A DNA stretch of 18,079 nucleotides, taken from positions 1-18,079 of the IMG/VR virus record IMGVR_UViG_2698536536_000001. The stretch is one strand, 5' to 3'. This document shows positions 504 through 18,079 of this stretch, piece by piece. Position 1 is the stretch's first letter, and the number at the start of each line of letters is the position of its first letter. Position numbers and translations under genes: made by a program. Under the pieces are notes generated by a model. The model ran no database searches. It had not been told where the DNA came from and saw nothing but the letters and a program-made list of their open reading frames with translations. The stretch comes from a virus. Lineage: Duplodnaviria; Heunggongvirae; Uroviricota; Caudoviricetes.

Positions 504-582
504 TAGGGTGTCACCAGTAGGGGCTTTCAACGGTACAATGCGGGTTTGAGCGGCATAAATTACCACTGAAAGCCCTTAAACG

Positions 583-2132: not shown

Positions 2133-2408
2133 ATGAATAGACAGCTTGTAAGCGTGACTGATGCCGTGCCTTATCAGGAGTTTGCAAAACTCATTGGTAA
2201 AACTCCAAGAGCTGTAAGGGGCATGATTGAGAAAGGGAAATTACCAGTTATTGAGATTACTGACCCTCAGTCAGTATCGGGGCGTGCTGGTGAATATTGG
2301 GTATACCTTCCGGCATGGAATAACGGACTAAAACTGGCTTATGAAAGCCGTCCTAAAGAGATTCGTGACGGCTGGTTGATGTGGTTAGGTCTCGGTGAAC
2401 CACGTTAA
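2133..2408 (+). CDS. cox: Cox excisionase / early transcriptional regulator, 91 aa
   Basis: Strong similarity to recalled P2 Cox (…PYQEFAKLIGK…GKLPVI…TDPQS.SGRAGEYWVYLPAWNNGLKLAYESRPKEIRDGWLMWLGLGEPR). Size and position match. Confidence 0.85.
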   Translation: MNRQLVSVTDAVPYQEFAKLIGKTPRAVRGMIEKGKLPVIEITDPQSVSGRAGEYWVYLPAWNNGLKLAYESRPKEIRDGWLMWLGLGEPR

Positions 2409-2418
2409 GGAGAACCGT

Positions 2419-2589
2419 ATGAATGAGCCTCGTTGTATTGCTCAGTTATTGCGTAACGAAAGCCCCAGGGCGATTGACTTCACCATCACCCACGGTAAGG
2501 GGCGTAAGGGAATCATTATCCGTACCAAAAAACAGAGTCCGTTAAAAAAGGCTCTGAGCTTTCTGAAAAGCCGGAGGGTCTGGAAATGA
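2419..2589 (+). CDS. Small early-region protein, P2 orf78-like position
   Basis: ORF directly after cox. Start chosen at the ATG preceded by aaggag (the ORF track starts at 2395). Function unknown. Confidence 0.45.
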   Translation: MNEPRCIAQLLRNESPRAIDFTITHGKGRKGIIIRTKKQSPLKKALSFLKSRRVWK

Positions 2590-3086
2590 CAGTGATGACA
2601 CTTAATCTCGTTGAAAAACAGCCAGCAGCTATGCGCCGGATAATTGGTAAGCATCTGGCCGTCCCTCGCTGGCAGGAGACATGCGATTATTATAATCAGA
2701 TGATGGAACGCGAACGGCTAACGGTTTGCTTCCATGCGCAGTTAAAACAGCGTCACGCAACGATGCGTTTTGAAGAAATGAACGACGTCGAACGTGAACG
2801 GCTGGTTTGTGCAATTGATGAACTGCGTGGGGCATTCTCAAAACGCCGTCAGGTCGGTGCAAGTGAGTATGCATATATTAGCTTTTTAACTGTCAGTCAG
2901 CGCCGTACTTTATTTATGCATGCCGGATTGACTGAAAAAGAATTCAACCAGCCATACTGGCGAATTAATGAAGAATCATGTTACTGGCGTGATGCCTTAT
3001 TCCGTGCATTACGTGAATTATTCAGCCTGTTTGAGTATGCACCGACAATTCTGACGTCGGTAAAACCAGAGCAATATCTGCATTAA
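2586..3086 (+). CDS. B: Replication gene B protein (helicase loader-like), 166 aa
   Basis: Position after cox/orf78 and length identical to the 166 aa I recall for P2 B. Start overlaps the preceding stop (ATGA), suggesting translational coupling. Confidence 0.75.
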   Translation: MTVMTLNLVEKQPAAMRRIIGKHLAVPRWQETCDYYNQMMERERLTVCFHAQLKQRHATMRFEEMNDVERERLVCAIDELRGAFSKRRQVGASEYAYISFLTVSQRRTLFMHAGLTEKEFNQPYWRINEESCYWRDALFRALRELFSLFEYAPTILTSVKPEQYLH

Positions 3087-3149
3087 GTAATTAACCAGAG
3101 TTTTTAACGCACTTAATTGTGCGGGGCTTCTTTTTGCCTGGAGAAAGTC

Positions 3150-3374
3150 ATGCATACAGTTTCTGAAAATCAGTGCGGTAAATACGCATTACTGCTGCAA
3201 CAGGCCAGAACCGAAGCACAGGCCGACGCAGCGACACGCTTTTCTTCTCATCTTGACGCCATGATTCGCCACATCACAAAGGCGGAGTTATCCCGCGTAG
3301 AGATAGTCGAGCTGCTCAGTCAGGAGTCGGAAAAATTTCACAATATCGGATTGTCTCGCGGGGAGGTGCTTTGA
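3150..3374 (+). CDS. Hypothetical early-region protein (P2 orf80 position)
   Basis: ORF with SD-like ggaga before the internal ATG at 3150; the ORF track starts at 3117. Synteny only. Confidence 0.45.
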
Positions 3375-3676
3375 TGTCCTGTTCTCGTTCAGTTGTATTA
3401 CTGAATAACGCCTTAAAAATCACCGTTATGAAAAATGGCGATCTATCTCTTATTCAACTTGGTCTTGATAAAGAAAAACGCGAAATAACTGAGTCTGTTA
3501 TCGCGATTTATCAGAACGAATTAAATCTCCTGTCTGATGTGGTCAATTTACTTGTTAAACGCGCTGTATTTCACAAGCAAATCTCCTCCGTGGATGAACT
3601 GACGAAATTAACGACAGAAATTGCCAGCTATTGCGCTGATGAATTTAAAAAACTGAACGACAAAAGGAACTGGTAA
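3371..3676 (+). CDS. Hypothetical early-region protein (P2 orf81 position)
   Basis: ORF whose start overlaps the previous stop. AT-richer than neighbours. Synteny only. Confidence 0.45.
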
Positions 3677-3900
3677 TGCCGGACAACGTAGATTTTATTC
3701 AGGAACAACAGGCTGAATTACTGGAGCGTCAGATTAACGCGGCAAGGGTAAAACATTGCGGAGCTTCTGCGCTGGTTTGCGAAGAGTGTGACGTGCCAAT
3801 ACCTGCTGCCCGTCGTGCGGCTTATCCGTCAGCCACGCGTTGTGTTTCCTGCCAGTCAGTCTTTGAAGCAAAAAACAAACATTACCGGAGAACGGCATGA
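3676..3900 (+). CDS. TraR/DksA-family C4 zinc-finger protein (P2 orf82 position)
   Basis: Translation contains C-x2-C-x17-C-x2-C (CEEC…17 residues…CVSC), the DksA/TraR zinc-finger spacing. 74 aa. Confidence 0.6.
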   Translation: MPDNVDFIQEQQAELLERQINAARVKHCGASALVCEECDVPIPAARRAAYPSATRCVSCQSVFEAKNKHYRRTA

Positions 3901-4172
3901 GTATTCGTATTGAAATTGGCGAACGTTATGTCGTTACCAGTGACAGCTTTCAGTTTATTCTCCACGAGAAAAAGAGAGCGGAAAGCGGTAAAAACGCCGG
4001 TCAGGAATGGCTGGCGGTGGTTGGTTATTATCCGAAATTAAGCCAGCTCGTTTCCGGCCTGATGCATCACGATATTCTGACCGGAAGCGCAAAGTCTTTT
4101 GCTGATTTAAACGCGCAGGTTGAGCAACTCAGCAGGCGTTGTTCAGAGGCTTTTGGCTCATATGGCCGTTAA
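3897..4172 (+). CDS. Hypothetical early-region protein (P2 orf83 position)
   Basis: ORF overlapping both neighbours (ATGA-type junctions). Synteny only. Confidence 0.45.
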   Translation: MSIRIEIGERYVVTSDSFQFILHEKKRAESGKNAGQEWLAVVGYYPKLSQLVSGLMHHDILTGSAKSFADLNAQVEQLSRRCSEAFGSYGR

Positions 4173-5753
4173 AGCCTCCGGGCGTTTTGTCCCTCCTTCA
4201 GCATTTGCTGCAGGCACCGGTAAGGCGTTTACCGGTGCTTATGCATGGAACGCGCCACGCGAGGCCGTCGGGCGCGAAAGACCCCTTACACGTGACGAGA
4301 TGCGTCAGGTGCAAGGTGTTTTATCCACGATTAACCGCCTGCCTTACTTTTTGCGCTCGCTGTTTACTTCACGCTATGACTACATCCGGCGCAATAAAAG
4401 CCCGGTATTGAGCGTTACGCCGCCGCAGAGGGTGATGTGGGGATGTTTATCACGCTGACCGCGCCGTCAAAGTATCACCCGACTCGTCAGGTCAGAAAAG
4501 GCGAAAGTAAAACCGTTCAGCTTAATCACGGCTGGAACGATGAGGCATTTAATCCAAAGGATGCGCAGCGTTATCTCTGTCGTATCTGGAGCCTGATGCG
4601 CACGGCATTCAAGGATAATGATTTACAGGCCTACGGTTTGCGTGTCGTTGAGCCACACCACGACGGAACGCCGCACTGGCATATGATGCTTTTTTGTAAT
4701 CCACGCCAGCGTAACCAGATTATTGAAATCATGCGTCGCTATGCGCTCAAAGAGGATGGCGACGAAAGAGGAGCCGCGCGAAACCGTTTTCAGGCAAAAC
4801 ACCTTAACCGGGGCGGTGCTGCGGGGTATATCGCGAAATACATCTCAAAAAACATCGATGGCTATGCACTGGATGGTCAGCTCGATAACGATACCGGCAG
4901 ACCGCTGAAAGACACTGCTGCGGCTGTTACCGCATGGGCGTCAACGTGGCGCATCCCACAATTTAAAACGGTTGGTCTGCCGACAATGGGGGCTTACCGT
5001 GAACTACGCAAATTGCCTCGCGGCGTCAGCATTGCTGATGAGTTTGACGAGCGCGTCGAGGCTGCACGCGCCGCCGCAGACAGTGGTGATTTTGCGTTGT
5101 ATATCAGCGCACAGGGTGGGGCAAATGTCCCGCGCGATTGTCAGACTGTCAGGGTCGCCCGTAGTCCGTCGGATGAAGTTAACGAGTACGAGGAAGAAGT
5201 CGAGAGAGTGGTCGGCATTTACGCGCCGCATCTCGGCGCGCGTCATATTCATATCACCAGAACGACGGACTGGCGCATTGTGCCGAAAGTTCCGGTCGTG
5301 GAGCCTTTGGCTTTAAAAAGCGGCATCGCCGCGCCTCGGAGTCCTGTCAATAACTGTGGAAAGCTCACCGGTGGTGATACTTCGTTACCGGCTCCCACAC
5401 CTTCTGAGCACGCCGCAGCAGTGCTTAATCTGGTAGATGACGGTGTTATCGAATGGAATGACCAGGAGGTCGTGAGGGCGCTCAGAGGTGCATTAAAACA
5501 CGGTCTGAGAAGACCAAACCGTCAGCAAAGAAACGGAAGCCCGTTAAAACCGCATGAAATAGCGCCATCGGCCAGACTGACCCGGTCGGAACGAATGCAA
5601 ATTACCCGTATCCGCGTTGACCTTGCTCAGAACGGTATCAGGCCGCAGCGATGGGAGCTTGAGGCGCTGGCGCGTGGTGCAATTGTGAACTATGGCGCAA
5701 AAGAATTTCATTACCATGTTCAGAAGGCGTGGGAAGCATTTTCGAGGTGGTAA
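4162..5753 (+). pseudogene. A: Rolling-circle replication initiator gene A, apparently frameshifted
   Basis: N-terminal frame MAVKASGRF… from 4162 ends at 4458. The C-terminal frame opens at 4398 and runs to 5753. The two frames are reconciled by a 1-nt change in the A4 run at 4396..4399. The C-terminal part carries an HUH motif (HHDGTPHWHMMLF) and a two-tyrosine motif (YIAKYISK). The combined length of about 530 aa is shorter than the roughly 760 aa I recall for P2 A. Confidence 0.7.
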
Positions 5754-5863
5754 TCTAAATATGAAAAATCTGCACACCGAAACACTCTTGTAGGTTGATA
5801 ATTTGCAAACTAGGTGGATTTACTCTTTGATGTGTAAGAAGTTATACTACAAAAAATTGATTT

Positions 5864-6784
5864 ATGGGCTTGGCGATGTATAACGATCCTTATAGTGACC
5901 CAAAAGCGTGGGAATCATATTTCAAAAATATTGTTTGGCTACATTATAAGCCTGCTAACTGTTGTGACTTGCCAGATGAGCATGGAGGCGACTTTGGGCT
6001 GGAGTGTTACACTCTGAGTGGTCATGTTTTTCAGTGTTACTTGCCTGAGCAGTCGAGTGATATTGATAAGCTTTATAAAGCGCAACAAAAAAAGATTTAT
6101 ACTGATATAAAAAAGTTTTCTCAGGATAACATTAAAGAATTAGAGGAGCTTTTTGGCACATTAAAAATTAGCCGCTGGATATTAGCTACACCATATAATA
6201 AATCGGCGAAATTAAGTCAATATTGCACAAAAAAATCATTAAAAGTAAGAGAGTTAGGGATTTCTTACGTTGCTGATGATTTTCAAATAGTAGTGCAAAC
6301 AGATCGAAATTATATAGAAGAAGCGTTCTTTCTTCGCAAAAATAACTATCAATTAAGCTTTAATATAAATGATGCGACGGCTGAGAATGCTGCTAACTTT
6401 ATTAGTGAAAATACATCTTTTTTAGATAAGCTAAATTTAAAATTACCTAAGATAAATGATGATGTATCTAGGCAGGGTTTATATAGAGAGTTTTTAATAC
6501 AAAAATATCTTGATTATCAAAACTTGCTGGATGCTTTGAAGAGAGACTGGGTTGATATCTATGAAATTATCTATAACTGTGTTCAACATAGAGAACGTAA
6601 TTTGGTAGGTCTCTTTCTTCTTACTTCATCAGATGCGAAACCATCAGATATAATGAAAGATGAAATCGCTTTGTTAAAGAAATGTATTGAAGAGGAAGTT
6701 AGTACGCTTAAACAGGCTGACTTGGATAAGATAACATGGGGAGTTATTTCTGATTGGCTTATAAGATGCCCTTTAGATTTTTAG
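5864..6784 (+). CDS. Cargo gene 1: unknown 306-aa protein, candidate effector of a defence operon
   Basis: Long ORF in a sharply AT-rich block directly after A, in the P2 tin/old hotspot position. N-terminal Cys/His-rich patch (NCCDLPDEHGGDFGLECYTLSGHVFQCY). No motif assignable by eye. Confidence 0.6.
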   Translation: MGLAMYNDPYSDPKAWESYFKNIVWLHYKPANCCDLPDEHGGDFGLECYTLSGHVFQCYLPEQSSDIDKLYKAQQKKIYTDIKKFSQDNIKELEELFGTLKISRWILATPYNKSAKLSQYCTKKSLKVRELGISYVADDFQIVVQTDRNYIEEAFFLRKNNYQLSFNINDATAENAANFISENTSFLDKLNLKLPKINDDVSRQGLYREFLIQKYLDYQNLLDALKRDWVDIYEIIYNCVQHRERNLVGLFLLTSSDAKPSDIMKDEIALLKKCIEEEVSTLKQADLDKITWGVISDWLIRCPLDF

Positions 6785-6785
6785 A

Positions 6786-7262
6786 ATGGAAAAGCAAATG
6801 CATATAACGATAGATGAAATAATAGGAAGGCCGTTTACGTTTAATAAACGACCTGAACATTTGCCATGTGATATGAGACCATTGTGGCGTTGCAGTTTGT
6901 TGCTGATAATATTCCTTGTCACAGGGAGAGCTGGTTGCTGTTCTTTAAAAAAACTTCATTTAATTAATTGGATGTTAAAGTCAGAGAATAATGAAGCAAT
7001 GTTTGAATTCTGGCTTTTAAACAAAGAAGGTTTAAAGCCTGAAGTAAGATTGGATCCAACTTTAGATAGAGCAATACAGCTATTATTAGCAGAGGATTTT
7101 ATTTTGAGAAATGAACGAGCGTTCAAAATAAATGAAAAGGGGCTTAAGGTCGCTGAGAAATTGCTTTCTCTTGATGTGTTCAAAGAAGAAAGGTTGGTGC
7201 TAAATAAACATAAGGCTGGACTGTCCGAAACTAACATTAATAAAATATTTCAGGTGGGTTAA
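6786..7262 (+). CDS. Cargo gene 2: unknown 158-aa protein
   Basis: Starts 2 bp after the gene 1 stop and ends 1 bp before gene 3. Same AT-rich composition. Contains one hydrophobic stretch (LWRCSLLLIIFLVTG). Confidence 0.55.
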   Translation: MEKQMHITIDEIIGRPFTFNKRPEHLPCDMRPLWRCSLLLIIFLVTGRAGCCSLKKLHLINWMLKSENNEAMFEFWLLNKEGLKPEVRLDPTLDRAIQLLLAEDFILRNERAFKINEKGLKVAEKLLSLDVFKEERLVLNKHKAGLSETNINKIFQVG

Positions 7263-7263
7263 T

Positions 7264-9285
7264 ATGTCGTTGGAAATTATTTCATTGGAGTTAGTAGCAA
7301 ATACTTCGGATGGGCGTTATGGTGTTAGTATACCTTTTTCAAATGGCTTGTTTTTATTAAGAGTTGAGAATTCTCATGGTAAATCAACTTGCATGAATGG
7401 GATTGCATATGCACTTGGGATGGAAAAGGCATTAGGTGTCGGTTCTGGAAAAATCCCATTCCCTCCATCTTTGACTAGAGCACTAACGACAAAAGATAAT
7501 GTTGAAGTTAGTGTAATATCATCTTATGTTTTGCTAAAAATAAAGAATCATAAGGGAATAGAAGCATCTTTGAAAAGGAATATTATCGGTCACGATAATA
7601 ATAATGTTATTTATATAGATGAGAAGAATAATGTAAAAAGTAAGAGTGGTACTTATTTTTTACATAGAGAGGGCGATACTGAAAGGGAACGTGGTTTCTA
7701 TAAGTGGTTAGCTGATTTTATAGGTTGGAGTTTGCCAAATGTTCCAAACCATAATGGGAAGGACACTATTCTTTATCCATCCGTACTTTTCCCTGCATGG
7801 TATGTTGAGCAAAAAAAAGGATGGTCGTCAATTATGGCGACTGTACCAACACAATTTGGAATTAAAGAGCCAAAGAAAAGAGCTCTAGAATTTTTAATGT
7901 CTCTTGATGTTAATGATAATATTTTATTGCGTAGTTCGTTAAGAAATGAACTTGATATTATTTATCATGATTGGAAGTTAATTAAACACAATGCAGAAGT
8001 TATTGCTTCTAAATTGTCGTCAGTTGTCACAGGGATTCCTGAACAACCAGTGGCAAAATTTGATCATTATAAGATAGATTTGATTATTAAAAATGGTAGT
8101 GTCGTTAGATCTATTGTTGATGTTCGTAATGAACTGGAAAAAGAGTTGCAAGAAATTAAGTTTGACACTCTTGGTGAGCAAGAAGAACAAACTTTACAAT
8201 TATCAGTGGTTAAGTTATTAGGTCAAAAAAATGATGAAATTAACTCTCTGGAATTAAAGATTAAAGAGATTTGTGAGCATAGAAGTTATATTCAATATCA
8301 AATTCAGGCGACCAAAAACAGATTGTATAATCTGTTGGAAGATAAAAGGAAGTATGAAGATTTAAAGAAAATATCATCTTCGGATGCGTATAAGTCAACA
8401 GATTTAATGTCAAATATTTGTCCGACTTGTGGTGCAAGTTATAATGATAATTTGCTAAGTTTTTCATCGCAAGAAAATCTGATGACATATGAAGATAGTT
8501 TGAACTTTATTAAAGAGCAAGTAAAAGCATTTGAGTTTGTTCTGTCGGATAGTGAAAAGCAATTAAAGCTTAAAGATGTTGAGAGGAGTGATTTAGAGGG
8601 GGAAATAGCCAAGATTAGAGTTGATATTAATGCATTAAGGGAGTCAAAATATCCCTCAATGGTTGTTCAGGAGGAGTTTCTGAGACGTAAAATAAACATT
8701 GAGAATAAAATTAATGCCATTAACGATGGCATTAAAAGTATATTGGACATTAGACTGGAGTTGGATTCATTACACCGTAGATATAAAAAGCTTATCGCGA
8801 AAAGAAAAGGGTTGCCAGATAATTTCTTGTCGCGTAATGATGCCGATAAGTTAAAATTTCTTAATAAAGAAGTCGTTGCACGATTAGAAAAATATAATTT
8901 TACAAGTTTTGATTCTAAACTTGTGTCAATATCAGAAGATAATTACTTACCTACTAGGGAAGGATATGATATAGGTTTTGACACATCAGCTAGTGATGGA
9001 ATAAGAATCATTTGGGGTTATTTAATAAGTTTATTTGTTGTTGGTTCTAAATTTCAAACAAATCACCCTGGATTGATTGTGTTTGATGAGCCTCGTCAAC
9101 AAGAAGCAAATAAAGTAAGTTTTGCCGAGTTACTTAAAGATGCTGCAGAAACAACAAAAGGACAAGGGCAGATCATTTTTGCTACATCAGAAGATGAAAA
9201 TGTCTTAAAAGAGGCATTAGAAGGGTATGACTATACAATGATATCCTTTGATAAGAACAATGGGAAATTGTTGAGGAAATTATAA
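7264..9285 (+). CDS. Cargo gene 3: SMC/Rad50-like ABC ATPase with coiled-coil arms, 673 aa
   Basis: N-terminal Walker A-like P-loop VENSHGKST (about 7366..7389). Long K/E/L-rich heptad-like middle region. CPTC motif at 8419..8430 near the middle of the coiled coil. C-terminal Walker B/D-loop GLIVFDEP (about 9071..9094). Confidence 0.75.
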   Translation: MSLEIISLELVANTSDGRYGVSIPFSNGLFLLRVENSHGKSTCMNGIAYALGMEKALGVGSGKIPFPPSLTRALTTKDNVEVSVISSYVLLKIKNHKGIEASLKRNIIGHDNNNVIYIDEKNNVKSKSGTYFLHREGDTERERGFYKWLADFIGWSLPNVPNHNGKDTILYPSVLFPAWYVEQKKGWSSIMATVPTQFGIKEPKKRALEFLMSLDVNDNILLRSSLRNELDIIYHDWKLIKHNAEVIASKLSSVVTGIPEQPVAKFDHYKIDLIIKNGSVVRSIVDVRNELEKELQEIKFDTLGEQEEQTLQLSVVKLLGQKNDEINSLELKIKEICEHRSYIQYQIQATKNRLYNLLEDKRKYEDLKKISSSDAYKSTDLMSNICPTCGASYNDNLLSFSSQENLMTYEDSLNFIKEQVKAFEFVLSDSEKQLKLKDVERSDLEGEIAKIRVDINALRESKYPSMVVQEEFLRRKINIENKINAINDGIKSILDIRLELDSLHRRYKKLIAKRKGLPDNFLSRNDADKLKFLNKEVVARLEKYNFTSFDSKLVSISEDNYLPTREGYDIGFDTSASDGIRIIWGYLISLFVVGSKFQTNHPGLIVFDEPRQQEANKVSFAELLKDAAETTKGQGQIIFATSEDENVLKEALEGYDYTMISFDKNNGKLLRKL

Positions 9286-9408
9286 ACTTTTATGTTGCTG
9301 CATTAGAATGCATGATTATTGTTTATCTGTTAAGAGTGCTCCGTGCCAGTGTCGGCGCGGAGAAATCATGTCATGCACCTGCATTAAAACCGACCCATGA
9401 AGCGGGCG

Positions 9409-9427
9409 GGCGAGGCGGGGAAAGCAC
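9409..9427. other. Putative cos site (19-nt cohesive end ggcgaggcggggaaagcac)
   Basis: Matches the P2 cohesive-end sequence as I recall it. Lies in the GC-rich intergenic region between the hotspot cargo and Q, where cos sits in P2. Confidence 0.55.
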
Positions 9428-9565
9428 TGCGCGCTGGCGGTGGTGCTGATTTTATTTTCCAGCGTCTCAGCGCGTCGTGACGGCGCTTAGTCTGCCCGTT
9501 GGGGGTTGGTGTGTCTGCGGGGTGTTTTGTGCGGTGGTGAGCGAGTGAGGGCGTGATGACGGGGT

Positions 9566-9589
9566 ATAAAAAAGCCGCCCGCAGGCGGC
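9566..9589 (-). terminator. Rho-independent terminator downstream of Q
   Basis: Minus-strand hairpin gccgcc-tgcg-ggcggc (stems at 9574..9579 and 9584..9589) followed by a U-run (a-run 9566..9573 on the plus strand), directly 3' of the Q stop. Confidence 0.5.
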
Positions 9590-9594
9590 GATGT

Positions 9595-10629
9595 TCAGCC
9601 GTTGTCAGTGTCCAGTGAGTAGTTTTTAAAGCGGATGACCTCCTGACCGAGCCAGCCGTTTATCTCGCGGATCCTGTCCTGTAGCGGGATAAGCTCATTG
9701 CGGACAAAGACCTTTGCCACTTTCTCAATATCACCCAGCGACCCGACGTTCTCCGGCTTGCCGCCCATCAACTGAAAGGGGATGCGGTGCGCGTCCAGCA
9801 GGTCAGCGGCGCTGGCTTTTTTGATATTAAAAAAATCGTCCTTCGTTGCCACTTCACTGAGCGGGATAATTTTGATGCCGTCGGCTTTCCCCTGTGGGGC
9901 ATAGAGAAACAGATTTTTAAAGTTGTTGCGGCCTTTCGACTTCACCATGTTTTCGCGGAGCATTTCGATATCGTTGCGATCCTGCACGGCATCAGTGACG
10001 TACATGATGTATCCGGCATGAGCGCCGTTTTCGTAATACTTGCGGCGGAACAGTGTGGCTGATTCATTCAGCCAGGCAGAATTAAGGGCGCTGAGATATT
10101 CCGGCAGGCCGTACAGCTCCTGATTGATATCCGGCTCCAGCAGGTGAAACACGGAGCCGGGCGTGAAGGCTGTCGGCTCGTTGAAGGACGGCACCCACCA
10201 GTAAACATCCTCCTCCACGCCACGGCGGGTATATTTTGCCGGTGAGGTTTCCAGTCTAATGACCTTACCGGTGGTGCTGTAACGCTTTTCCAGAAACGCA
10301 TTACCGAACACCAGAAAATCCAGCACAAAGCGGCTGAAATCCTGTTGCGAAAGCCACGGATGCGGGATAAATGTCGAGGCCAGAATATTGCGTTTAACGT
10401 AAATCGGTGAGCTGTGATGCACGGCAGCACGCAGGCTTTTCGCCAGACCGGTAAAGCTGACCGGCGGCTCATACCATCTGCCGTTACTGATGCACTCGAC
10501 GTAATCCAGAATGTCACGGCGGTCGAGTACCGGCACCGGCTCACCAAAGGTGAAAGCCTCCATTTTCGGGGCGCTGGCGGTCATTTTTTTTGCCTCAGGT
10601 TGCGGTGTTTTCCCTTTTTTCTTGCTCAT
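9595..10629 (-). CDS. Q: Portal (capsid) protein Q, 344 aa
   Basis: 344 aa, the length I recall for P2 Q. N-terminus MSKKKGKTPQP… Adjacent to cos and in P2 orientation. Confidence 0.85.
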   Translation of the reverse strand: MSKKKGKTPQPEAKKMTASAPKMEAFTFGEPVPVLDRRDILDYVECISNGRWYEPPVSFTGLAKSLRAAVHHSSPIYVKRNILASTFIPHPWLSQQDFSRFVLDFLVFGNAFLEKRYSTTGKVIRLETSPAKYTRRGVEEDVYWWVPSFNEPTAFTPGSVFHLLEPDINQELYGLPEYLSALNSAWLNESATLFRRKYYENGAHAGYIMYVTDAVQDRNDIEMLRENMVKSKGRNNFKNLFLYAPQGKADGIKIIPLSEVATKDDFFNIKKASAADLLDAHRIPFQLMGGKPENVGSLGDIEKVAKVFVRNELIPLQDRIREINGWLGQEVIRFKNYSLDTDNG

Positions 10630-10940
10630 CAGTAAAACTCCAGAATGGTGGATGTCAGCGGAGTGCTGATACCGGCGGTGAGTGGCTCATTTAACAGGGC
10701 GTGCATGGTTGCCCAGGCGAGGTCGGCGTGGCTGGCTTCCTCGCTGCGGCTGGCCTCATAGGTGGCGCTGCGTCCGCTGCTGGTCATGGTCTTGCGGATA
10801 GCCATAAACGAGCTGGTGATGTCGGTGGCGCTGACGTCATATTCCAGACAGCCACGGCGGATAACGTCTTTTGCCTTGGCCGACATCGTGCTCAACAGTA
10901 CGCAGGCGTCTTTCTGTACCGAATACCGCGTCGTGACCGG
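10629..10940 (-). pseudogene. P: 3' remnant of terminase large-subunit gene P, truncated by deletion
   Basis: Open frame whose stop overlaps the Q start (ATGA), as for P-Q in P2, but only about 100 codons remain before it collides with gene I on the opposite strand. Upstream boundary is approximate. Homology to P not verified. Confidence 0.4.
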
Positions 10941-10948
10941 AGGCTCGG

Positions 10949-11479
10949 ATGAGTGATTCGCGACTGCTGCCGACCGGCTCATCACCGCTTGAGGTCGCCG
11001 CCGCAAAAGCCTGTGCGGAAATTGAAAAAACGCCGGTCAGTATTCGTGAGCTGTGGAACCCGGACACCTGTCCGGCAAATCTGCTGCCGTGGCTGGCGTG
11101 GGCGTTTTCGGTCGACAGGTGGGATGAAAAGTGGCCGGAAGCGACAAAACGCGCCGTTATCCGCGATGCGTATTTCATCCACTGTCATAAGGGCACTATC
11201 GGTGCAATCCGGCGTGTGGTGGAGCCGCTCGGCTATCTCATCAACGTGACGGAGTGGTGGGAAAACAGTGACCCGCCAGGCACCTTCCGGCTTGATATTG
11301 GTGTTCTGGAAAGTGGCATCACAGAGGCAATGTATCAGGAAATGGAACGGCTGATTGCTGATGCCAAACCTGCAAGCCGTCACCTTATTGGCCTGAACAT
11401 TACCCGGGACATTCCCGGCTACCTGTTCGCCGGTGGTGTGGCTTACGACGGCGATGTAATTACGGTTTACCCCGGATAA
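10949..11479 (+). CDS. I: Baseplate assembly protein I, 176 aa
   Basis: 176 aa with sequence matching recalled P2 gpI (MSDSRLLPTGSSPLEVAAAKA…). SD ggagg upstream. Immediately followed by H. Confidence 0.8.
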   Translation: MSDSRLLPTGSSPLEVAAAKACAEIEKTPVSIRELWNPDTCPANLLPWLAWAFSVDRWDEKWPEATKRAVIRDAYFIHCHKGTIGAIRRVVEPLGYLINVTEWWENSDPPGTFRLDIGVLESGITEAMYQEMERLIADAKPASRHLIGLNITRDIPGYLFAGGVAYDGDVITVYPG

Positions 11480-11489
11480 GTGAGGAATA

Positions 11490-13700
11490 ATGAGCACAAA
11501 ATTCAGAACCGTTATCACCACTGCCGGTGCAGCAAAGCTGGCAGCGGCAACCGCGCCGGGAGGGCGGAAGGTCAACATTACCACGATGGCCGTCGGGGAT
11601 GGCGGTGGTAAATTGCCTGTCCCGGATGCCGGACAGACCGGGCTTATCCATGAAGTCTGGCGACATGCGCTGAACAAAATCAGCCAGGACAAACGAAACA
11701 GTAATTATATTATCGCAGAGCTGGTTATTCCGCCGGAGGTGGGCGGTTTCTGGATGCGTGAGCTTGGCCTGTACGATGATGCGGGAACATTAATTGCCGT
11801 GGCGAACATGGCCGAAAGTTATAAGCCAGCTCTTGCCGAAGGCTCAGGGCGTTCGCAGACCTGTCGCATGGTCATCATCGTCAGCAGTGTGGCCTCAGTG
11901 GCGCTGACCATTGACACCACAACGGTGATGGCGACGCAGGATTACGTTGATGACAAAATTGCAGAGCATGAACAGTCACGACGTCACCCGGACGCCTCGC
12001 TGACCGCAAAAGGTTTTACTCAGTTAAGCAATGCGACCAACAGCACGTCTGAAACACTGGCCGCAACGCCGAAAGCGGTAAAGGCCGCGTATGATCTTGC
12101 TAACGGGAAATACACTGCGCAGGATGCCACCACAGCGCGAAAAGGCCTTGTCCAGCTCAGTAGCGCCACCAACAGCACGTCTGAAACGCTCGCCGCAACA
12201 CCAAAAGCGGTAAAGGCAGCATATGACCTGGCTAACGGGAAATATACCGCACAGGACGCCACCACAGCGCGAAAAGGCCTTGTCCAGCTCAGTAGCGCCA
12301 CCAACAGCGATTCTGAAACGCTTGCGGCAACGCCAAAGGCGGTAAAAGCAGCATATGACCTTGCTAACGGGAAATACACTGCACAGGATGCCACCACGGC
12401 GCGAAAAGGTCTTGTCCAGCTCAGTAGCGACACCAACAGTGATTCTGAAACGCTGGCCGCAACACCAAAAGCGGTGAAGTCTGCCTATGACAATGCTGAA
12501 AAACGTCTTCAGAAAGATCAGAACGGTGCGGATATTCCGGGAAAGGATACCTTCACGAAAAATATCGGTGCCTGTCGTGCTTATAGCGGTGCTTTGAGCA
12601 CTGAAGCCGGAAACTGGACAACCGCTCAGTTTATTGACTGGCTAGAGTCTCAGGGAGCCTTTAATCATCCCTACTGGATGTGCAAGTGTTCCTGGTCATA
12701 CGGTAATAACAAAATTATTACCGATACTGACTGTGGGACGATTCATCTTGCAGGTTGCGTGATTGAGGTTATGGGCGTTAAAGCAGCAATGACCATTCGT
12801 GTGACCACTCCGAGTACATCAAGCGGTGGTGGTACCACCAGTGCGCAATTCACGTATATCAATCACGGAGCTGATTATGCGCCGGGCTGGCGACGCGACT
12901 ACAATACGAAAAATAAGCAACCGGCTTTTGCATTAGGGAAAACAGGAAATACGGTTGCAAATAATAAAGCGGTAGGATGGAACTGGGACAGTGGTGCTTA
13001 TTGTGCAAAGGATGGCGGAGCATCCAAAATGGTGCTGCATTTTTACACGGGTGAGGGAAGTTGTCCGGCAATGCAGTTTCTTGTGGATTATAAAAACAGG
13101 GGGATTTTTTACAGGTCGGCACGTGATTGGTATGGATTTGAGGCTGACTGGTCAGAGTTTTATACCACATCACGAAAGCCAACACCTGCGGATATTCTTG
13201 CTCTGGCATTATCAGGTGGAAGCATGTCAGGCAGCATAAAATTTATCAATGATGCCTTCCTGATTTGGGAAAGAAACACTGATTGGGCGAAAATTGGATT
13301 TAAAAATGATTCAGATGCTGATTCTGACTCATACATGTGGTTTGAAACTGGTGATAATGGCAATGAATATTTTAAATGGCGCATCAGGTCTGGCAGCACA
13401 ACAAAAGATCTGATGACGCTTAAGTCTGATGCACTACGGGTTACCGGGCAGGTGATACCATCAAATTTCAGCAATTTTGACTCCCGCTATGTCCGGGATA
13501 TCCGGCTTGGTGGTGCCGCCACATACAAACCTGCGAACAATGGCATGACATGGACACATCAGGCACCGTCCGGGTGTGTATATACCGGCATTATTGTTCA
13601 GGATACCGGCTCAAACTCTGCCGATAACATTGGTGGCGTATATTACAGACCGGTTCAGAAATACATTAACGGGACGTGGTACAACGTGGCGCAGGTATAA
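11490..13700 (+). CDS. H: Tail fibre protein H, 736 aa, with internal tandem repeats
   Basis: Conserved P2-type N-terminus (MSTKFRTVITTAGAAKLAAA…). Central 44-aa tandem repeats. C-terminal part is lower in GC and presumably the receptor-binding region. SD gagga upstream. Followed by G. Confidence 0.85.
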   Translation: MSTKFRTVITTAGAAKLAAATAPGGRKVNITTMAVGDGGGKLPVPDAGQTGLIHEVWRHALNKISQDKRNSNYIIAELVIPPEVGGFWMRELGLYDDAGTLIAVANMAESYKPALAEGSGRSQTCRMVIIVSSVASVALTIDTTTVMATQDYVDDKIAEHEQSRRHPDASLTAKGFTQLSNATNSTSETLAATPKAVKAAYDLANGKYTAQDATTARKGLVQLSSATNSTSETLAATPKAVKAAYDLANGKYTAQDATTARKGLVQLSSATNSDSETLAATPKAVKAAYDLANGKYTAQDATTARKGLVQLSSDTNSDSETLAATPKAVKSAYDNAEKRLQKDQNGADIPGKDTFTKNIGACRAYSGALSTEAGNWTTAQFIDWLESQGAFNHPYWMCKCSWSYGNNKIITDTDCGTIHLAGCVIEVMGVKAAMTIRVTTPSTSSGGGTTSAQFTYINHGADYAPGWRRDYNTKNKQPAFALGKTGNTVANNKAVGWNWDSGAYCAKDGGASKMVLHFYTGEGSCPAMQFLVDYKNRGIFYRSARDWYGFEADWSEFYTTSRKPTPADILALALSGGSMSGSIKFINDAFLIWERNTDWAKIGFKNDSDADSDSYMWFETGDNGNEYFKWRIRSGSTTKDLMTLKSDALRVTGQVIPSNFSNFDSRYVRDIRLGGAATYKPANNGMTWTHQAPSGCVYTGIIVQDTGSNSADNIGGVYYRPVQKYINGTWYNVAQV
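12010..12495. repeat. Tandem coding repeats inside H, 132-bp unit, about 3.7 copies
   Basis: Units begin at about 12036, 12168, 12300 and 12432. They are roughly 90% identical, differing mainly at third codon positions, and encode ATNSTSETLAATPKAVKAAYDLANGKYTAQDATTARKGLVQLSS. Confidence 0.85.
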
Positions 13701-13703
13701 TTT

Positions 13704-14231
13704 ATGCAGCATTTGATAAATATAACGGCAGGTAATCCAAAAACGGTTGAACAATATCAATTGACAAAGGACTTTGATGTTGTCTGGTTTTTTTCAGAAG
13801 ATGGTAAGAACTGGTACGAAGAACAAAAGTATTTTGCTGATGACACGATAAAAATAGCGTACGACAAAGATAATATTATCCGCTATGTGGAAAAGGATGT
13901 GACAGCTATCAGACCGGATGGATTAAGTGTGGTTGAAGTGGTGGATATTACTGCTAATCGACGGGCGGACATTTCAGGGAACTGGATGTTTAAGGACGGC
14001 AAAGTGATTAAACGCATTTATACGGCAGAGGAATTGCGGCAGCAGGCAGAAAACCGGAAAGCCAGACTTCTTGCAGATGCTGAATCCGTGATTTTGCCGC
14101 TGGAGCGCGCGGTCAGACTGAACATGGCAACAGATGAGGAGCGTAGCCGACTGGAAGCATGGGAACGCTACAGCGTTCTGGTCAGTCGTGTGGAGCCTGC
14201 AAATCCTGAATGGCCGGAAATGCCGCAATAA
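13704..14231 (+). CDS. G: Tail fibre assembly protein G, 175 aa
   Basis: 175 aa, directly downstream of H as in P2. Start is 3 bp after the H stop. Confidence 0.8.
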
Positions 14232-14412
14232 GTTGTATGAGCTTACATATCTATTGCGTAGAGTAAAGCATAATCTGACAGTCCGCTCTGTGCCAGAAGC
14301 GGACGTAGCGGCAGCATACATAACCTTATGATTTCTTAAAATTTTCCGCTTGGTTTCTGATTGACTAATGAAAATTAATTGAAATTATAAAGCATTCGCA
14401 GTAACTTGTGCG

Positions 14413-14658
14413 GTGCCGATAATTTCATTCTACCCAATATCATTTATGATTGTAGATAAGAGTAGTGAAAAATATAACAACGGATATAGTGTTGCAATAC
14501 CACTTGGAGCCGTGAAAATGGAACTGGCCGATGATGTACTAAAAATAAACCTTTCATCATGGAATGATATTAAAACAGGATTTCCTTACACAGGGATTAA
14601 TGAGTATGAGTTACTCATATTAGATGAGAATCTTTCATTTATAACTTATAAAAAATAA
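14413..14658 (+). CDS. Hypothetical small protein in the Z/fun hotspot position (start uncertain)
   Basis: AT-rich ORF between G and FI. The ORF-track start is a GTG; an alternative ATG lies at 14446. No clear SD. No recognisable motif. Confidence 0.3.
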   Translation: MPIISFYPISFMIVDKSSEKYNNGYSVAIPLGAVKMELADDVLKINLSSWNDIKTGFPYTGINEYELLILDENLSFITYKK

Positions 14659-14713
14659 CAATTAACAATACTTCACTTATGTGTGAGTGGTTTTAAAGAG
14701 TAAATAATTCATA

Positions 14714-15016
14714 ATGGAAAAAAGTATGACAATTGAAACCATAAAAATACTAGCGGCAATTAGTAGCATCATTGGTTCTATGATTCTTGCCTATCGAGTT
14801 ACAGGGATTCTTGCAGCACTTTCTCTTGCAATAGATTGCCATGAAGAAAACATTAAACAATTAATGCCAACCAATAAGGGGGATGTTTATTATCTCGCAA
14901 ATGCAACTACGCACGTTAAAAATGCGCAAAAGAAACCGCTTCTAATCACGGGGTTTATCTTTCTAATTGCATCTGGTTTTTTGCAGTTTACAGCGTTGAT
15001 AATGGCAAATATTTAA
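14714..15016 (+). CDS. Small membrane protein, about 100 aa with two predicted transmembrane helices
   Basis: Hydrophobic segments IKILAAISSIIGSMILAY…GILAALSLAI and LLITGFIFLIASGFLQFTALIMANI. AT-rich. Followed by a terminator at 15186..15213. Confidence 0.5.
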   Translation: MEKSMTIETIKILAAISSIIGSMILAYRVTGILAALSLAIDCHEENIKQLMPTNKGDVYYLANATTHVKNAQKKPLLITGFIFLIASGFLQFTALIMANI

Positions 15017-15185
15017 CAATGGAATGATACCACCGGTGGTGCGGCTGAAACGATTTGTACGTCATTTAAGCCGCATCGAAATTTAAAGTAACGTCCGCAA
15101 TTCGCTCCAAGCAGACTGTCAGATTTGATAGCGTTTTGGCTATGTAAATTGTCAGTCGGAAAATGAGTGAATACAAATCAGGACA

Positions 15186-15213
15186 GGCGGGCTGATTGCC
15201 CGCCTTTTCTTTA
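15186..15213 (+). terminator. Rho-independent terminator after the Z/fun-position cargo
   Basis: Hairpin ggcgggc-tgatt-gcccgcc followed by ttttcttt. Confidence 0.55.
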
Positions 15214-15308
15214 TCTGTTGTTTCATCCCCTGACCAGCCAGGTCAAATAGCGTCTCATGCTCTGCACAACAGAAAATAGTTGCACCCATTAACCACGGAG
15301 TTAAACGG

Positions 15309-16145
15309 ATGAGTGACTATCATCACGGCGTGCAGGTGCTGGAGATTAACGACGGCACCCGCGTCATTTCCACCGTATCCACTGCCATTGTCGGCATGGT
15401 CTGCACGGCCAGCGATGCGGATGCGGAAACCTTTCCCCTCAATAAACCTGTGCTGATTACCAATGTGCAGAGCGCAATTGCAAAGGCCGGTAAAAAAGGC
15501 ACGCTGGCGGCGTCGCTGCAGGCCATCGCCGACCAGTCAAAACCGGTCACCGTTGTTGTGCGCGTGGAAGACGGCACCGGCGACGACGAGGAAACGAAAC
15601 TTGCGCAGACCGTTTCCAATATCATCGGCACCACCGACGAAAACGGTCAGTACACCGGCGTAACGGCAAAGTGGTTACACACCAAAGACCCGAAGCCGCA
15701 AAAGCAGAAGGTAAAACTGAAACGCAAAAAGAAAGAAAAACACCTGCGCGCACTGGAGCACCCGAAAGCGAAACCGGTCACGCAGAAGAAAGCGCCAAAA
15801 GTACCGGAAGCGCGCGAAGGTGAATACATGGCCGGTGAAGCTGACAACGTTTTTGCCCTGACTACGGTATATGCCACGAAAGCACAGGCCATGCGCGCCG
15901 CTCAGGCGAAGTGGGATAAACTGCAACGGGGCGTTGCGGAGTTCTCCATCAGCCTTGCCACTGGTCGTGCTGATATTTACACGGAAACACCGGTCAGAGT
16001 GTCAGGCTTTAAGCGCGTCATAGACGAGCAGGACTGGACCATCACTAAGGTGACACATTTTCTGAATAATAGCGGCTTCACGACGTCCTTGGAGCTTGAG
16101 GTCAGGCTTTCTGATGTGGAGTACGAAACAGAAGATGATGAGTAA
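15309..16145 (+). pseudogene. In-frame fusion remnant: tail sheath FI N-terminus joined to tail protein D C-terminus (yegZ-like)
   Basis: First ~118 residues ([14 protein letters not shown]…TDENGQYTG) match the recalled P2 FI sheath N-terminus. The C-terminal ~100 residues lie immediately upstream of ogr, where gene D ends in P2. The two are joined by a Lys-rich linker. FII, E, T, U and most of FI and D are missing. Confidence 0.65.
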
Positions 16146-16226
16146 TGTTTTTATTTTATCTGTTTGTTTTATAAGGATAAATTAACTAAAATGGCACCGT
16201 CAACAAAACCGGAAGAGGTGCTCGCG

Positions 16227-16445
16227 ATGTTTCATTGTCCTTTATGCCAGCATGCCGCACATGCGCGTACAAGTCGCTATATCACTGACACGACAAAAGA
16301 GCGTTATCACCAGTGTCAGAACGTGAATTGTAGCGCCACGTTCATCACTTATGAGTCGGTACAGCGATACATCGTGAAGCCGGGAGAAGTCCACGCCGTA
16401 AGGCCGCACCCGTTGCCATCAGGGCAGCAAATTATGTGGATGTAA
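16227..16445 (+). CDS. ogr: Late-gene transcription activator Ogr, zinc-finger protein, 72 aa
   Basis: Sequence MFHCPLCQHAAHARTSRYITDTTKERYHQCQNVNCSATFITYESVQRYIV… matches recalled P2 Ogr, with C-x2-C…C-x4-C zinc-finger cysteines. Start taken at the internal ATG with SD ggaagagg, not the upstream ATG at 16164. Confidence 0.9.
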   Translation: MFHCPLCQHAAHARTSRYITDTTKERYHQCQNVNCSATFITYESVQRYIVKPGEVHAVRPHPLPSGQQIMWM

Positions 16446-16457
16446 TTACAAACAGAA

Positions 16458-16482
16458 AGCCCCTCAGTCGAGGGGCTTTTTT
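16458..16482 (+). terminator. Rho-independent terminator of ogr
   Basis: Hairpin agcccct-cagtcg-aggggct followed by tttttt. Confidence 0.6.
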
Positions 16483-16513
16483 GTCGATGTGGTCAATGTG
16501 TGGACGTGACCAG
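16483..16513. promoter_or_regulatory. Arm-type repeat region next to the right att core (tgtggtcaa / tgtggacgt)
   Basis: Sequence gtcgatgtggtcaatgtgtggacgtgaccag contains two TGTGG(A/T)C motifs. A close copy of this segment also occurs at 429..458 in the left flank. Confidence 0.4.
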
Positions 16514-16546
16514 AAATAAATCCTTTTATTTCAATTTGTTGTACGT

Positions 16547-16573
16547 AAAAAATAAGCCCGTGTAAGGGAGATT
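16547..16573. repeat. Right copy of 27-bp P2 att core
   Basis: Exact direct repeat of 477..503. It overlaps the terminator end of cyaR. Confidence 0.8.
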
Positions 16574-16634
16574 ACACAGGCTAAGGAGGTGGTTCCTGGT
16601 ACAGCTAGCATTTTATGGGTTATGTTTTTCAGCG
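16547..16634 (-). ncRNA. cyaR: Hfq-dependent small RNA CyaR (RyeE)
   Basis: Minus-strand sequence GCTGAAAAACATAACCCATAAAATGCTAGCTGTACCAGGAACCACCTCCTTAGCCTGTGTAATCTCCCTTACACGGGCTTATTTTTT matches recalled CyaR, including the CCUCCU anti-SD motif and the terminator hairpin with U-tail. Between yegQ and ogr, as in E. coli K-12. Confidence 0.8.
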
Positions 16635-16684
16635 AAACGGATGATAACCTTAATAAATGCAGCTGTATGTGATCGGTTTCTAAG
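16635..16684 (-). promoter_or_regulatory. Putative cyaR promoter with CRP-like site
   Basis: Reading the minus strand, a -10-like TATCAT lies at -13..-8 relative to the inferred +1 (plus coordinates 16642..16647). A CRP-like half-site pair TTAGA-N6-TCACA lies at 16669..16684. CyaR is known to be CRP-activated; the site match is partial. Confidence 0.4.
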
Positions 16685-16717
16685 AATTTTCCATCCGGGA
16701 AAAATAATCGAAATTAA

Positions 16718-18079
16718 TCACTTACCGTGGGGATTACGCGTGGTTTCCCCGGAGAAATTACGCATCAGCAGCGCGTAATTGAGCTCAAGATCCTGCGGGA
16801 CCGGGAGCCACACAGTATAACCATCGCCTGGTGCTATCGGCATAGCTTCGCCTTTGGCGTTTTCCATGTGCTCAAGGGTAAAATTAATGTTGCCTTGCGG
16901 CGTCATCAGCTCAAGGCTGTCGCCAACGGAGAATTTATTTTTCACCGCTACCGCCGCGAGGTCCCCCTTGCGCTCACCGGTAAACTCACCAACAAACTGC
17001 TGGCGGTCAGAAACTGAATAACCGTATTCGTAGTTCTGATAATCGTCGTGAGTATGACGACGCAGGAAACCTTCGGTATAGCCACGATGCGCCAGACCTT
17101 CCAGAGTTTCCAGCAGGCTGGTATCGAACGGTTTTCCCGCAGCGGCGTCATCGATAGCTTTGCGGTAAACCTGTGCGGTGCGTGCACAATAGTAGAAAGA
17201 TTTGGTACGACCTTCGATTTTCAGCGAATGCACGCCCATTTTGGTCAGGCGTTCTACATGGGCGATGGCGCGCAGATCTTTCGAGTTCATGATGTAAGTG
17301 CCGTGCTCATCTTCAAACGCGGTCATATACTCGCCCGGACGCTGGGCTTCTTCGATCATAAACACTTTGTCGGTTGGCGCGCCGATACCTAGCGTCGGCT
17401 CAACATTTTGCACCGGAATCGGCTCGTACTTGTGTACGATGTTGCCAACGTCATCTTCTTTCCCTTCCTGGACGTTGTACTCCCAGCGGCAGGCGTTGGT
17501 GCAGGTACCCTGGTTCGGATCGCGCTTGTTGATATAGCCAGAGAGCAGGCAGCGACCGGAGTAGGCCATGCACAGCGCACCGTGAACGAAGATCTCGATC
17601 TCCATATCCGGCACCTGATTGCGGATCTCTTCAATCTCTTCCAGCGACAGCTCGCGAGAGAGGATCACGCGGGTCAGGCCCATTTGCTGCCAGAATTTCA
17701 CCGTCGCCCAGTTTACGGCGTTAGCCTGCACCGAGAGGTGGATCGGCATTTCAGGGAAGTGCTCACGCACCAGCATAATCAGCCCTGGATCGGACATAAT
17801 CAGCGCATCCGGCCCCATTTCCACCACCGGTTTCAGGTCACGGATAAAGGTTTTCAGCTTGGCGTTGTGCGGTGCAATGTTGACCACGACATAAAACTTT
17901 TTCCCCAGCGCGTGGGCTTCATTGATGCCGAGCTGAAGATTTTCGTGGTTGAATTCGTTGTTGCGCACACGCAGGGAGTAACGCGGCTGGCCCGCATAAA
18001 CAGCATCTGCGCCATAAGCGAAAGCGTAACGCATATTTTTCAGCGTTCCCGCCGGGGAAAGGAGTTCCGGTTTAAACAT
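16718..18079 (-). CDS. yegQ: U32-family peptidase-like protein YegQ (TrhP), 453 aa, complete
   Basis: Full-length ORF from MFKPELLSPAGTLKNMRYAFAYGADAVYAGQ… matching recalled E. coli YegQ. The start codon is at the last three bases of the window. Confidence 0.9.
   Translation of the reverse strand: MFKPELLSPAGTLKNMRYAFAYGADAVYAGQPRYSLRVRNNEFNHENLQLGINEAHALGKKFYVVVNIAPHNAKLKTFIRDLKPVVEMGPDALIMSDPGLIMLVREHFPEMPIHLSVQANAVNWATVKFWQQMGLTRVILSRELSLEEIEEIRNQVPDMEIEIFVHGALCMAYSGRCLLSGYINKRDPNQGTCTNACRWEYNVQEGKEDDVGNIVHKYEPIPVQNVEPTLGIGAPTDKVFMIEEAQRPGEYMTAFEDEHGTYIMNSKDLRAIAHVERLTKMGVHSLKIEGRTKSFYYCARTAQVYRKAIDDAAAGKPFDTSLLETLEGLAHRGYTEGFLRRHTHDDYQNYEYGYSVSDRQQFVGEFTGERKGDLAAVAVKNKFSVGDSLELMTPQGNINFTLEHMENAKGEAMPIAPGDGYTVWLPVPQDLELNYALLMRNFSGETTRNPHGK

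Follow-up and report, generated by a model that had tools for sequence, protein, structure and literature searches.

We analysed an 18,079-nucleotide (nt) stretch of DNA, hereafter the window, which comprises positions 1 to 18,079 of the IMG/VR virus record IMGVR_UViG_2698536536_000001 (Caudoviricetes), and in particular the segment between the tail fibre assembly gene G and the remnant of the sheath gene FI. The window is a degraded P2-like prophage, integrated beside yegQ (16718-18079, minus strand). An original prediction, made from the sequence alone, had described this segment as an AT-rich island of about 1.1 kb at the Z/fun position of P2, which carries an open reading frame (ORF) of 81 amino acids (aa), a 100-aa protein with two predicted transmembrane (TM) helices and a terminator of its own, and had considered a role in superinfection exclusion or abortive infection plausible. 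The size and composition of the island are as predicted: the spacing between gene G and the FI remnant (14232-15308) is 1,077 bp, and the GC content is 0.29-0.35 across 14300-14900 compared with 0.48-0.58 in the flanks. Table 1 lists the features of the segment and its borders. We refer to the 81-aa frame as ORF1 and to the second frame, ORF2, as gene C.

Table 1. Features of the Z/fun slot and its flanking genes, in window coordinates
Feature	Position	Strand	Details
Gene G, tail fibre assembly (left backbone gene)	13704-14231	+	175-aa ORF; Pfam Caudo_TAP on the identical gene
Left boundary element	14272-14306	+	Hairpin core GTCCGCT-CTGTGCCAGA-AGCGGAC at 14281-14304; RNA fold -16.3 kcal/mol
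Retained cassette upstream region	14305-14420	+	Sigma-70-like promoter match TTGACT-16-AATTAT with TG at 14361-14388
ORF1, probable 3′ remnant of gene B (last ~80 codons)	14413-14658	+	81 aa, GTG start
Deletion junction	14417-14420		CGA(T) microhomology; breakpoints in loci L026 and L003 share CGA/CGAT
Gene C (ORF2), intact	14726-15016	+	96 aa; mechanical ORF 14714-15016, 100 aa
Stem-loop directly 3′ of gene C	15037-15078	+	-18.5 kcal/mol, z -2.4; kept in L026 and L003, partly in L017
Right boundary element (degenerate arm)	15091-15125	+	GTCCGC-AATTCGCTCCAA-GCAGAC and TGTCAGATT; hairpin 15093-15116; fold -5.1 kcal/mol
Terminator-like hairpin and T-run	15185-15205	+	8-bp stem, 7 GC pairs
FI::D fusion ORF (right backbone gene)	15309-16145	+	N-terminus of sheath FI and C-terminus of D; Pfam Gp18_domIII_N and Phage_GPD

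In P2 the same slot is occupied by fun(Z), on the opposite strand, for which the P2 record annotates a block of T5, and the literature counts Z/fun among the loci of P2-like phages that vary and carry defence genes (PMC13586616; PMC9122126). That the slot holds exchangeable cargo, as originally proposed, was borne out by a search of 5,426 complete E. coli genomes: 1,139 matched in the flanks only, the P2-like prophages of about 1,100 of the E. coli genomes having other genes there, and the content of the island was found in two, in each case within an intact P2-like prophage, the chromosomal site differing between them. As cargo of this hotspot, the island is thus rare. Position between G and FI, variable content and deviant composition are all those of Z/fun cargo (a 'moron').

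Homology to P2 and to the ~1,100 other prophages covers 14232-14304 and 15083/15090-15308, the P2 alignment stopping at 14304 and resuming at 15090, and the cargo proper is 14305-15092. On either side of it stands one arm of a 35-nt inverted repeat (77% complementary), each with a hairpin element. The core of the left hairpin (one match against 0.01 expected) recurs in P2 at 61 nt past G (P2 15335-15358), and fun(Z) is bracketed by the same two elements; the right hairpin of the window, judging by its weak fold, has decayed. The island is horizontally acquired cargo lying exactly between the two inverted hairpins that bracket the Z/fun slot of P2-like phages. The hairpin and T-run that had been taken for the island's own terminator do exist, but they lie inside a segment, 15083-15308, that is conserved in P2 and in about 1,100 E. 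coli genomes with other cargo, and therefore belong to the P2 backbone. According to the P2 annotation and the alignment, this hairpin adjoins, just upstream, the Ogr-dependent pF promoter region, with the Ogr-activator site at approximately 15212-15240 by offset from the P2 annotation. The stem-loop directly 3′ of gene C may serve as a weak terminator or stabiliser of the cargo transcript.

Comparison with related loci shows the island to be a deletion derivative of a three-gene mobile cassette, A-B-C, that is intact elsewhere and consists of a promoter region, gene A (301 aa), gene B (263-280 aa) and gene C (96 aa). By blastn, window 14275-14420 corresponds to positions 3673-3819 of the Edwardsiella locus L003 (87% identity), a region upstream of gene A, and window 14419-15116 corresponds to 5695-6391 of L003 (91.7%) and 4701-5388 of the metagenome contig L026 (93.6%), which contain the 3′ part of gene B and gene C. 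Relative to the intact cassette about 1.87 kb is lost: gene A is missing completely, and gene B lacks its first ~184-199 codons. The CGA/CGAT tract common to the breakpoints indicates a microhomology-mediated deletion; this stripped gene A together with the N-terminal two thirds of gene B, including a putative metal-finger/HNH motif, so that the promoter region of the cassette is now fused to the ORF1 remnant, with gene C intact behind it. In four independent contexts the upstream block that was retained hardly varies; plausibly it is the promoter of the cassette, and transcription from it would now run into the remnant and gene C.

The junction is identical in the five E. coli copies of the island, whose cargo differs at 3 positions, compared with 9 in a 215-bp stretch of backbone flank, which argues for a single and recent deletion. 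The P2 prophages that carry the truncated island differ in backbone and integration site, so that the truncated cargo has spread between P2 backbones after the deletion.

Of the genes involved, gene A has a product with two TM helices near its N-terminus, a coiled coil and a domain at its C-terminus, for which there was no match in Pfam or PADLOC. It also occurs in E. coli TUM1880 (L039; NZ_CP135706.1, 3080345-3081250), beside icd and an e14-type integrase, where it has the same promoter block, a different downstream gene (375 aa) and four copies of the boundary hairpin around it.

ORF1 is best read, from the sequence comparison, as a pseudogene fragment made up of the last 81 codons of gene B, a gene for an HNH-like protein of 263-280 aa. 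The DNA of ORF1 is collinear with the 3′ end of gene B and 92-94% identical to it. In Pfam, NCBIfam and PADLOC (the last at E<=1) ORF1 had no useful match. Upstream of the gene C homologue in an Edwardsiella tarda prophage lies a gene for a 263-aa protein that has ORF1 as its C-terminus and matches phrog_21495 at profile positions 99-265 of 269 (E 2.5e-21), a profile to which ORF1 itself gives a weak match at positions 198-257. Gene B encodes 280 aa in L026, in Pectobacterium brasiliense (L163) and in a CP4-57-type island (L162); in these three loci and in L003 it precedes the gene C homologue by 64-67 nt. The N-terminus of the full-length relatives contains C-x2-C, DHVPP and C-x2-C-N-N, and Pfam HNH_5 matches them below threshold (E 0.0015-0.004; 17.6-18.9 bits against a cut-off of 27.5 bits), so the HNH assignment is putative. 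ORF1 begins about 184-199 codons past the CxxC..DH..CxxCN motif, which is wholly absent from it. A gene B homologue also stands in the Z/fun slot of the P2-like phage pro147 (ORF9; AKH49325, 'putative metal-binding domain-containing protein', phrog_21495; 33% identity over 277 aa, E 6e-50), where the complete gene stands by itself on the opposite strand, whereas the window retains the last 81 codons without CxxC..DHVPP..CxxCNN. An AlphaFold2 model of gene B, built from a four-sequence alignment, was unusable (predicted local distance difference test score, pLDDT, 40.7); a search of PDB sequences with gene B gave no match, and full-length genes A and B matched 0 families of PADLOC-DB v2.0.0, a release of 2023 outside whose coverage newer systems fall.

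This history bears directly on the idea that the small ORF and the membrane protein, with a terminator of their own, form a two-gene effector pair for exclusion or abortive infection, which we regard as very unlikely. Both frames are open in all five E. coli copies, they occupy a defence hotspot, and a GGAG precedes an internal ATG of ORF1, one gene caller predicting a 46-aa product. However, we found no homologue of ORF1 outside E. coli or as an independent gene, its GTG start sits on the deletion junction itself, and its start has been called in three ways (81 aa as a mechanical ORF, 70 aa by the prokaryotic genome annotation pipeline, PGAP, and 46 aa by the other caller), as expected of a non-gene; the terminator, in turn, is conserved backbone. 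The ratio of nonsynonymous to synonymous substitution rates (dN/dS) is indistinguishable between the remnant (0.17-0.54) and pairs of intact gene B (0.13-0.39), the deletion being too recent for decay to be visible in this measure. A 46-aa sequence, P0030, was considered as a decayed variant of ORF1 and rejected, as it is another start-codon call on an almost identical sequence. The open frame of the original prediction thus exists, but not as an independent gene, and the conservation as coding sequence in related prophages on which that prediction was made to depend fails for ORF1 and holds for ORF2.

Gene C is, as judged from sequence comparison, a real gene under purifying selection. We found 28 homologues (E 1e-18 to 1e-54) in Edwardsiella, Pectobacterium, Dickeya, Halomonas, Sulfuriferula and metagenomes, nearly all of 95-96 aa, with a mean column identity of 72% in the alignment and dN/dS values of 0.13-0.47 against the window copy. 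Because nearly all of them begin MTIETIK, and a 1-nt indel in L026 throws the upstream ATG out of frame, the true start is the ATG at 14726; the two-helix protein of the original prediction is therefore real, with two hydrophobic stretches, but has 96 rather than 100 residues. An exhaustive profile search extended the family to 65 representative clusters in Gamma- and Betaproteobacteria, of ~90-130 aa and without fused domains. Residues G17, L21, A22, R24, H39, G76 and F77 are near-invariant.

Gene C encodes a predicted two-helix inner-membrane protein of a family without annotation. Kyte-Doolittle analysis (19-residue window, >1.6) marks residues 3-38 and 71-96 as hydrophobic in the 96-aa numbering, and AlphaFold2 models a helical hairpin with a short middle helix (helices 2-50, 58-71 and 75-99 in 100-aa numbering; pLDDT 68.7). 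The protein ends 2-3 residues past helix 2 (...LIMANI). The loop between the helices, of ~47 aa, contains 6 Lys/Arg and 4 Asp/Glu, R24 coming immediately behind the first helix and K69-K70 immediately ahead of the second; by the positive-inside rule, the loop, including H39-E40, would be cytoplasmic and both termini outside, and we infer an N-out/C-out topology. A match to TIGR00974 (PstA; E 0.012, 14.8 bits against a cut-off of 193 bits) was dismissed as hydrophobic noise.

About 20 distinct contexts of gene C were examined, and in each the surrounding DNA is variable or mobile. They comprise a lambdoid prophage, a locus directly downstream of a P4-primase-like gene, islands bounded by a tRNA or an integrase, conjugative elements, a MobA plasmid and CP4-57-type islands. 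Its same-strand neighbours within 30-240 nt include gene B (four contexts), a classical HNH gene, a TdeIII-like restriction enzyme followed by a SinI-type enzyme, DUF4365, DUF4145, a C92-like peptidase, SH3_3, DUF3592 and a 60-aa protein. Nuclease-type genes follow gene C after gaps of 54 nt (HNH), 76 nt (TdeIII-like), 89 nt (DUF4365) and 236 nt (DUF4145). KAP NTPase, AbiEi/AbiEii, putAbiC, HEPN, SLATT and CbtA/CbeA genes are also among its neighbours. An all-against-all BLASTP of the neighbours revealed no partner family that recurs across contexts, and 64 members of the gene C family had no Pfam family in common. A protein or domain of ~60 aa (35% identity, E ~1e-9 to 1e-11) does recur beside gene C in two lineages far apart, upstream in one and downstream in the other (L008 5701-5880 and L013 587-769, as well as L014-L016 and L032); it is absent from the window. 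The copies in Leclercia, Pectobacterium and Dickeya have in common a 5′ leader of their own with an AAGGAG Shine-Dalgarno sequence, and a 3′ flank; that of Leclercia (L017) is a single-gene unit between hairpins at 5894 and 6367. Read most simply, these contexts make gene C a module of one gene, complete in itself, that inserts into cargo slots; nucleases are frequent but not constant neighbours.

From these observations, we hypothesize that the island is a deletion-derived remnant in which gene C persists as an autonomous, small inner-membrane module of genetic conflict, a joint statement that we hold, on balance, to be somewhat probable. Its structural part is in our judgement very probable; an anti-phage role of gene C, argued from its contexts, we consider somewhat less likely than not. 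In such a role gene C would be transcribed in the lysogen from the retained promoter, the protein would insert in the inner membrane as an N-out/C-out helical hairpin whose cytoplasmic loop carries R24 and H39-E40, and it might oligomerise there and either block the entry of incoming phage DNA or permeabilise the membrane upon infection.

A number of observations tell against this hypothesis. The association of gene C with defence genes is loose, and its neighbours include AdeT, PEMT, ParA and aspS, which are not defence genes. The promoter is a consensus match, and the number of such matches in the region is not above the shuffled expectation. The exclusion or abortive-infection role had been proposed without homology searches, and homology gave it no support, leaving context as its sole basis: gene C matched no family in Pfam, NCBIfam, PHROGs or PADLOC (Pfam and PADLOC at E<=1), the gene C profile had no match among PDB sequences, Foldseek searches of BFVD and PDB returned generic helical bundles at E > 0.2 throughout, and tblastn against 50,697 phage and 72,556 plasmid records was negative. 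The island is also young, and its intactness is therefore uninformative on selection in E. coli. Finally, the closest subclade of gene C is always paired with gene B.

This last point introduces the main alternative, which we consider rather unlikely: that gene C is an orphaned component requiring gene B, or A and B, as a membrane sensor or anchor, or as a protective immunity or regulatory subunit, and that the window island is a relic. If gene C needed a neighbouring nuclease, the island would be inert. The closest relatives (81-91% aa identity) do keep an intact gene B before gene C, in four independent contexts (L003, L026, L162 and L163), and distant lineages have a nuclease-type gene close behind gene C on the same strand; the near-identity of the cargo in all E. 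coli copies indicates a recent arrival that could be neutral, and its presence in 2 of 5,426 genomes makes it rare. On the other hand, the partners come from at least five unrelated families, and in L017, L007, L023 and L031 gene C has no nuclease neighbour, which is hard to reconcile with a specific protein-protein partnership. The Leclercia-type copies, moreover, are single-gene units with a leader of their own and flanking hairpins, and the truncated island spread among P2 backbones after the deletion.

Known systems provide analogies for such a module. The closest in position is P2 Fun(Z) (NP_046777), which like the island lies in the slot between two hairpins and is non-essential, low-GC, exchangeable cargo (PMC13586616). 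Its sequence is unrelated, however, and it is a single 529-aa protein on the opposite strand, whereas the cargo of the window is a truncated multi-gene cassette whose genes are co-oriented with the tail genes. Another comparison is with T4 Imm and HK97 gp15, small inner-membrane superinfection-exclusion proteins of phages. Gene C is similarly short, has predicted membrane helices and forms non-essential prophage or phage cargo among tail genes; it nevertheless shows no sequence or fold similarity to proteins of the Imm, Sie or gp15 type (none in PHROG, Pfam or NCBIfam; BFVD and PDB at E > 0.2), and it is found on plasmids, integrative and conjugative elements (ICEs) and chromosomal islands of Beta- and Gammaproteobacteria and is thus not confined to phages. 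In the defence systems Kiwa and Zorya, a membrane protein works together with an effector in the cytoplasm. Like two-part systems of this kind, gene C stands beside nuclease-type genes in mobile-element hotspots; unlike them, it has an inconstant partner, no PADLOC model matches A, B or C, and the nuclease is destroyed in the window. A defence system composed of an HAD-like hydrolase and a transmembrane protein has been validated in P4 hotspots (PMC9122126). SLATT and the other annotated two-TM effector domains gave no Pfam match to gene C at E<=1. At best, gene C resembles small membrane proteins of exclusion or abortive infection, as an analogy and not as a member of their families.

Gene C might instead have no anti-phage role at all, and be a membrane toxin of low toxicity or an addiction module, an immunity protein against a membrane-targeting bacteriocin or a type VI secretion effector, or a stress or ion factor, although we think this unlikely. 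Apart from the lack of a defence-database match and the non-defence neighbours already mentioned, the gene lies directly downstream of an orphan Hcp gene in Pectobacterium and follows CbtA/CbeA-type toxin-antitoxin genes in Leclercia and L162, and the strong conservation of R24, H39 and E40 would also suit a ligand- or ion-related function. Against this, most contexts are rich in defence-type genes, and no effector gene lies beside gene C in the Hcp context. At 96 aa it is longer than type I toxins, which usually have <60 aa, and we saw no antisense promoter that is conserved; an antisense promoter-like match at 14732-14704 is not kept in the Leclercia-type leader, and there was no Rfam match. 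In class II holins and pinholins a short turn connects two TM helices, the C-terminal tail is charged and hydrophilic, and the gene lies in a lysis cassette. Gene C differs in its ~47-aa loop, in ending directly after helix 2 without a charged tail and in its location outside the lysis module; a holin and an endolysin are encoded elsewhere in the intact relatives. By the tests that we ran, the locus fits exchangeable Z/fun cargo and matches no family of defence, exclusion, holin or SLATT proteins that has a name, nor is it readily assigned to the type I toxins.

A more far-reaching proposal, which we consider improbable as a whole, is that the gene C family constitutes a constant membrane core that pairs interchangeably with unrelated nucleases of the phrog_21495, classical HNH, restriction-enzyme-like, DUF4365 and DUF4145 kinds, localising or licensing them where phage DNA enters, and that its cassettes are shuffled between prophages, satellites, ICEs and islands at the 24-nt hairpin GTCCGCT-N10-AGCGGAC. 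This hairpin is of interest in its own right. In the form GTCCGCT-(YTGTGCCARR or YTGAGCGARR)-AGCGGAC it is found at cargo or gene boundaries of several unrelated enterobacterial mobile elements, with sites at 5894 and 6367 in L017, 3863 in L026, 4855 and 6368 in L003, 7175, 8850, 8892 and 10065 in L039 and 3368 in L040. The two copies at Z/fun, in P2 as in the window, are inverted, and the conserved AATCTGACA flank faces the backbone. For intact copies, the folding energies are -18 to -22 kcal/mol. A scan of viral contigs yielded at least 120 stretches with the hairpin; among the matches listed, 107 of 130 sites lie outside ORFs of at least 100 aa, and the loops are non-random. Neither the hairpin nor the island has a match in Rfam. 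Its possible roles are those of a recombination site or of an RNA element marking the limits of morons. An apparently covarying outer stem was rejected as an artefact of the palindromic core being read on both strands, since it vanished once the sites were oriented.

The backbone around the slot is itself damaged. Compared with the intact relatives in E. coli VG12A2 (L001; CP128592) and SC480 (L002; LR778153), the window prophage has two large deletions: one at 10878, which joins terminase gene P to the I region with a loss of ~9.8 kb, and one at 15658, which links L002 19427 to 24886 with a loss of ~5.5 kb. As the latter joins FI to D, the ORF to the right of the slot is an FI::D fusion, and it is the slot's defective right-hand backbone gene. 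To the left, gene G is annotated by PGAP as 'tail fiber assembly protein' at a 99.8% identical locus. The product of replication gene A of the prophage (438 aa; 4437-5753), which is distinct from gene A of the cassette, matches the Phage_GPA profile at positions 184-321 only and appears to lack its N-terminal part. The prophage is thus defective in at least three places, yet both of its cargo regions persist. The other region (5864-9285) lies in the cos-proximal hotspot between A and Q and has three co-oriented ORFs of 306, 158 and 673 aa; its sole match is a sub-threshold one of the 673-aa ORF to AAA_23 (SMC-like ATPase, E 0.0025), and it is a candidate for an uncharacterised system. Internal blastn self-matches revealed three tandem copies of a ~44-aa segment (…TAQDATTARKGLVQLSSATNS.SETLAATPKAVKAAYDLANGKY…) in the tail fibre gene H (12005-12491).

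In a recent survey of P2 and P4 hotspots, defence loci are described as being swapped 'without pseudogenization' (PMC13586616). The locus described here is a clear and datable instance of internal decay of hotspot cargo, in which a truncated cassette persisted and spread among P2 backbones. We stress that a clone of 14300-15230, as initially suggested for tests against phages, would carry a broken cassette; the informative comparison is with intact B-C and A-B-C from Pectobacterium brasiliense (GCA_013449485.1, JACDSD010000004.1 around 204-206 kb) or Edwardsiella tarda (CP084510.1, about 1.696-1.699 Mb). Should gene C prove active, the defence and exclusion factors borne by prophages would gain a membrane protein that is very small and has been widely transferred, and there would be a handle on a family of 65 clusters that is annotated by no database.

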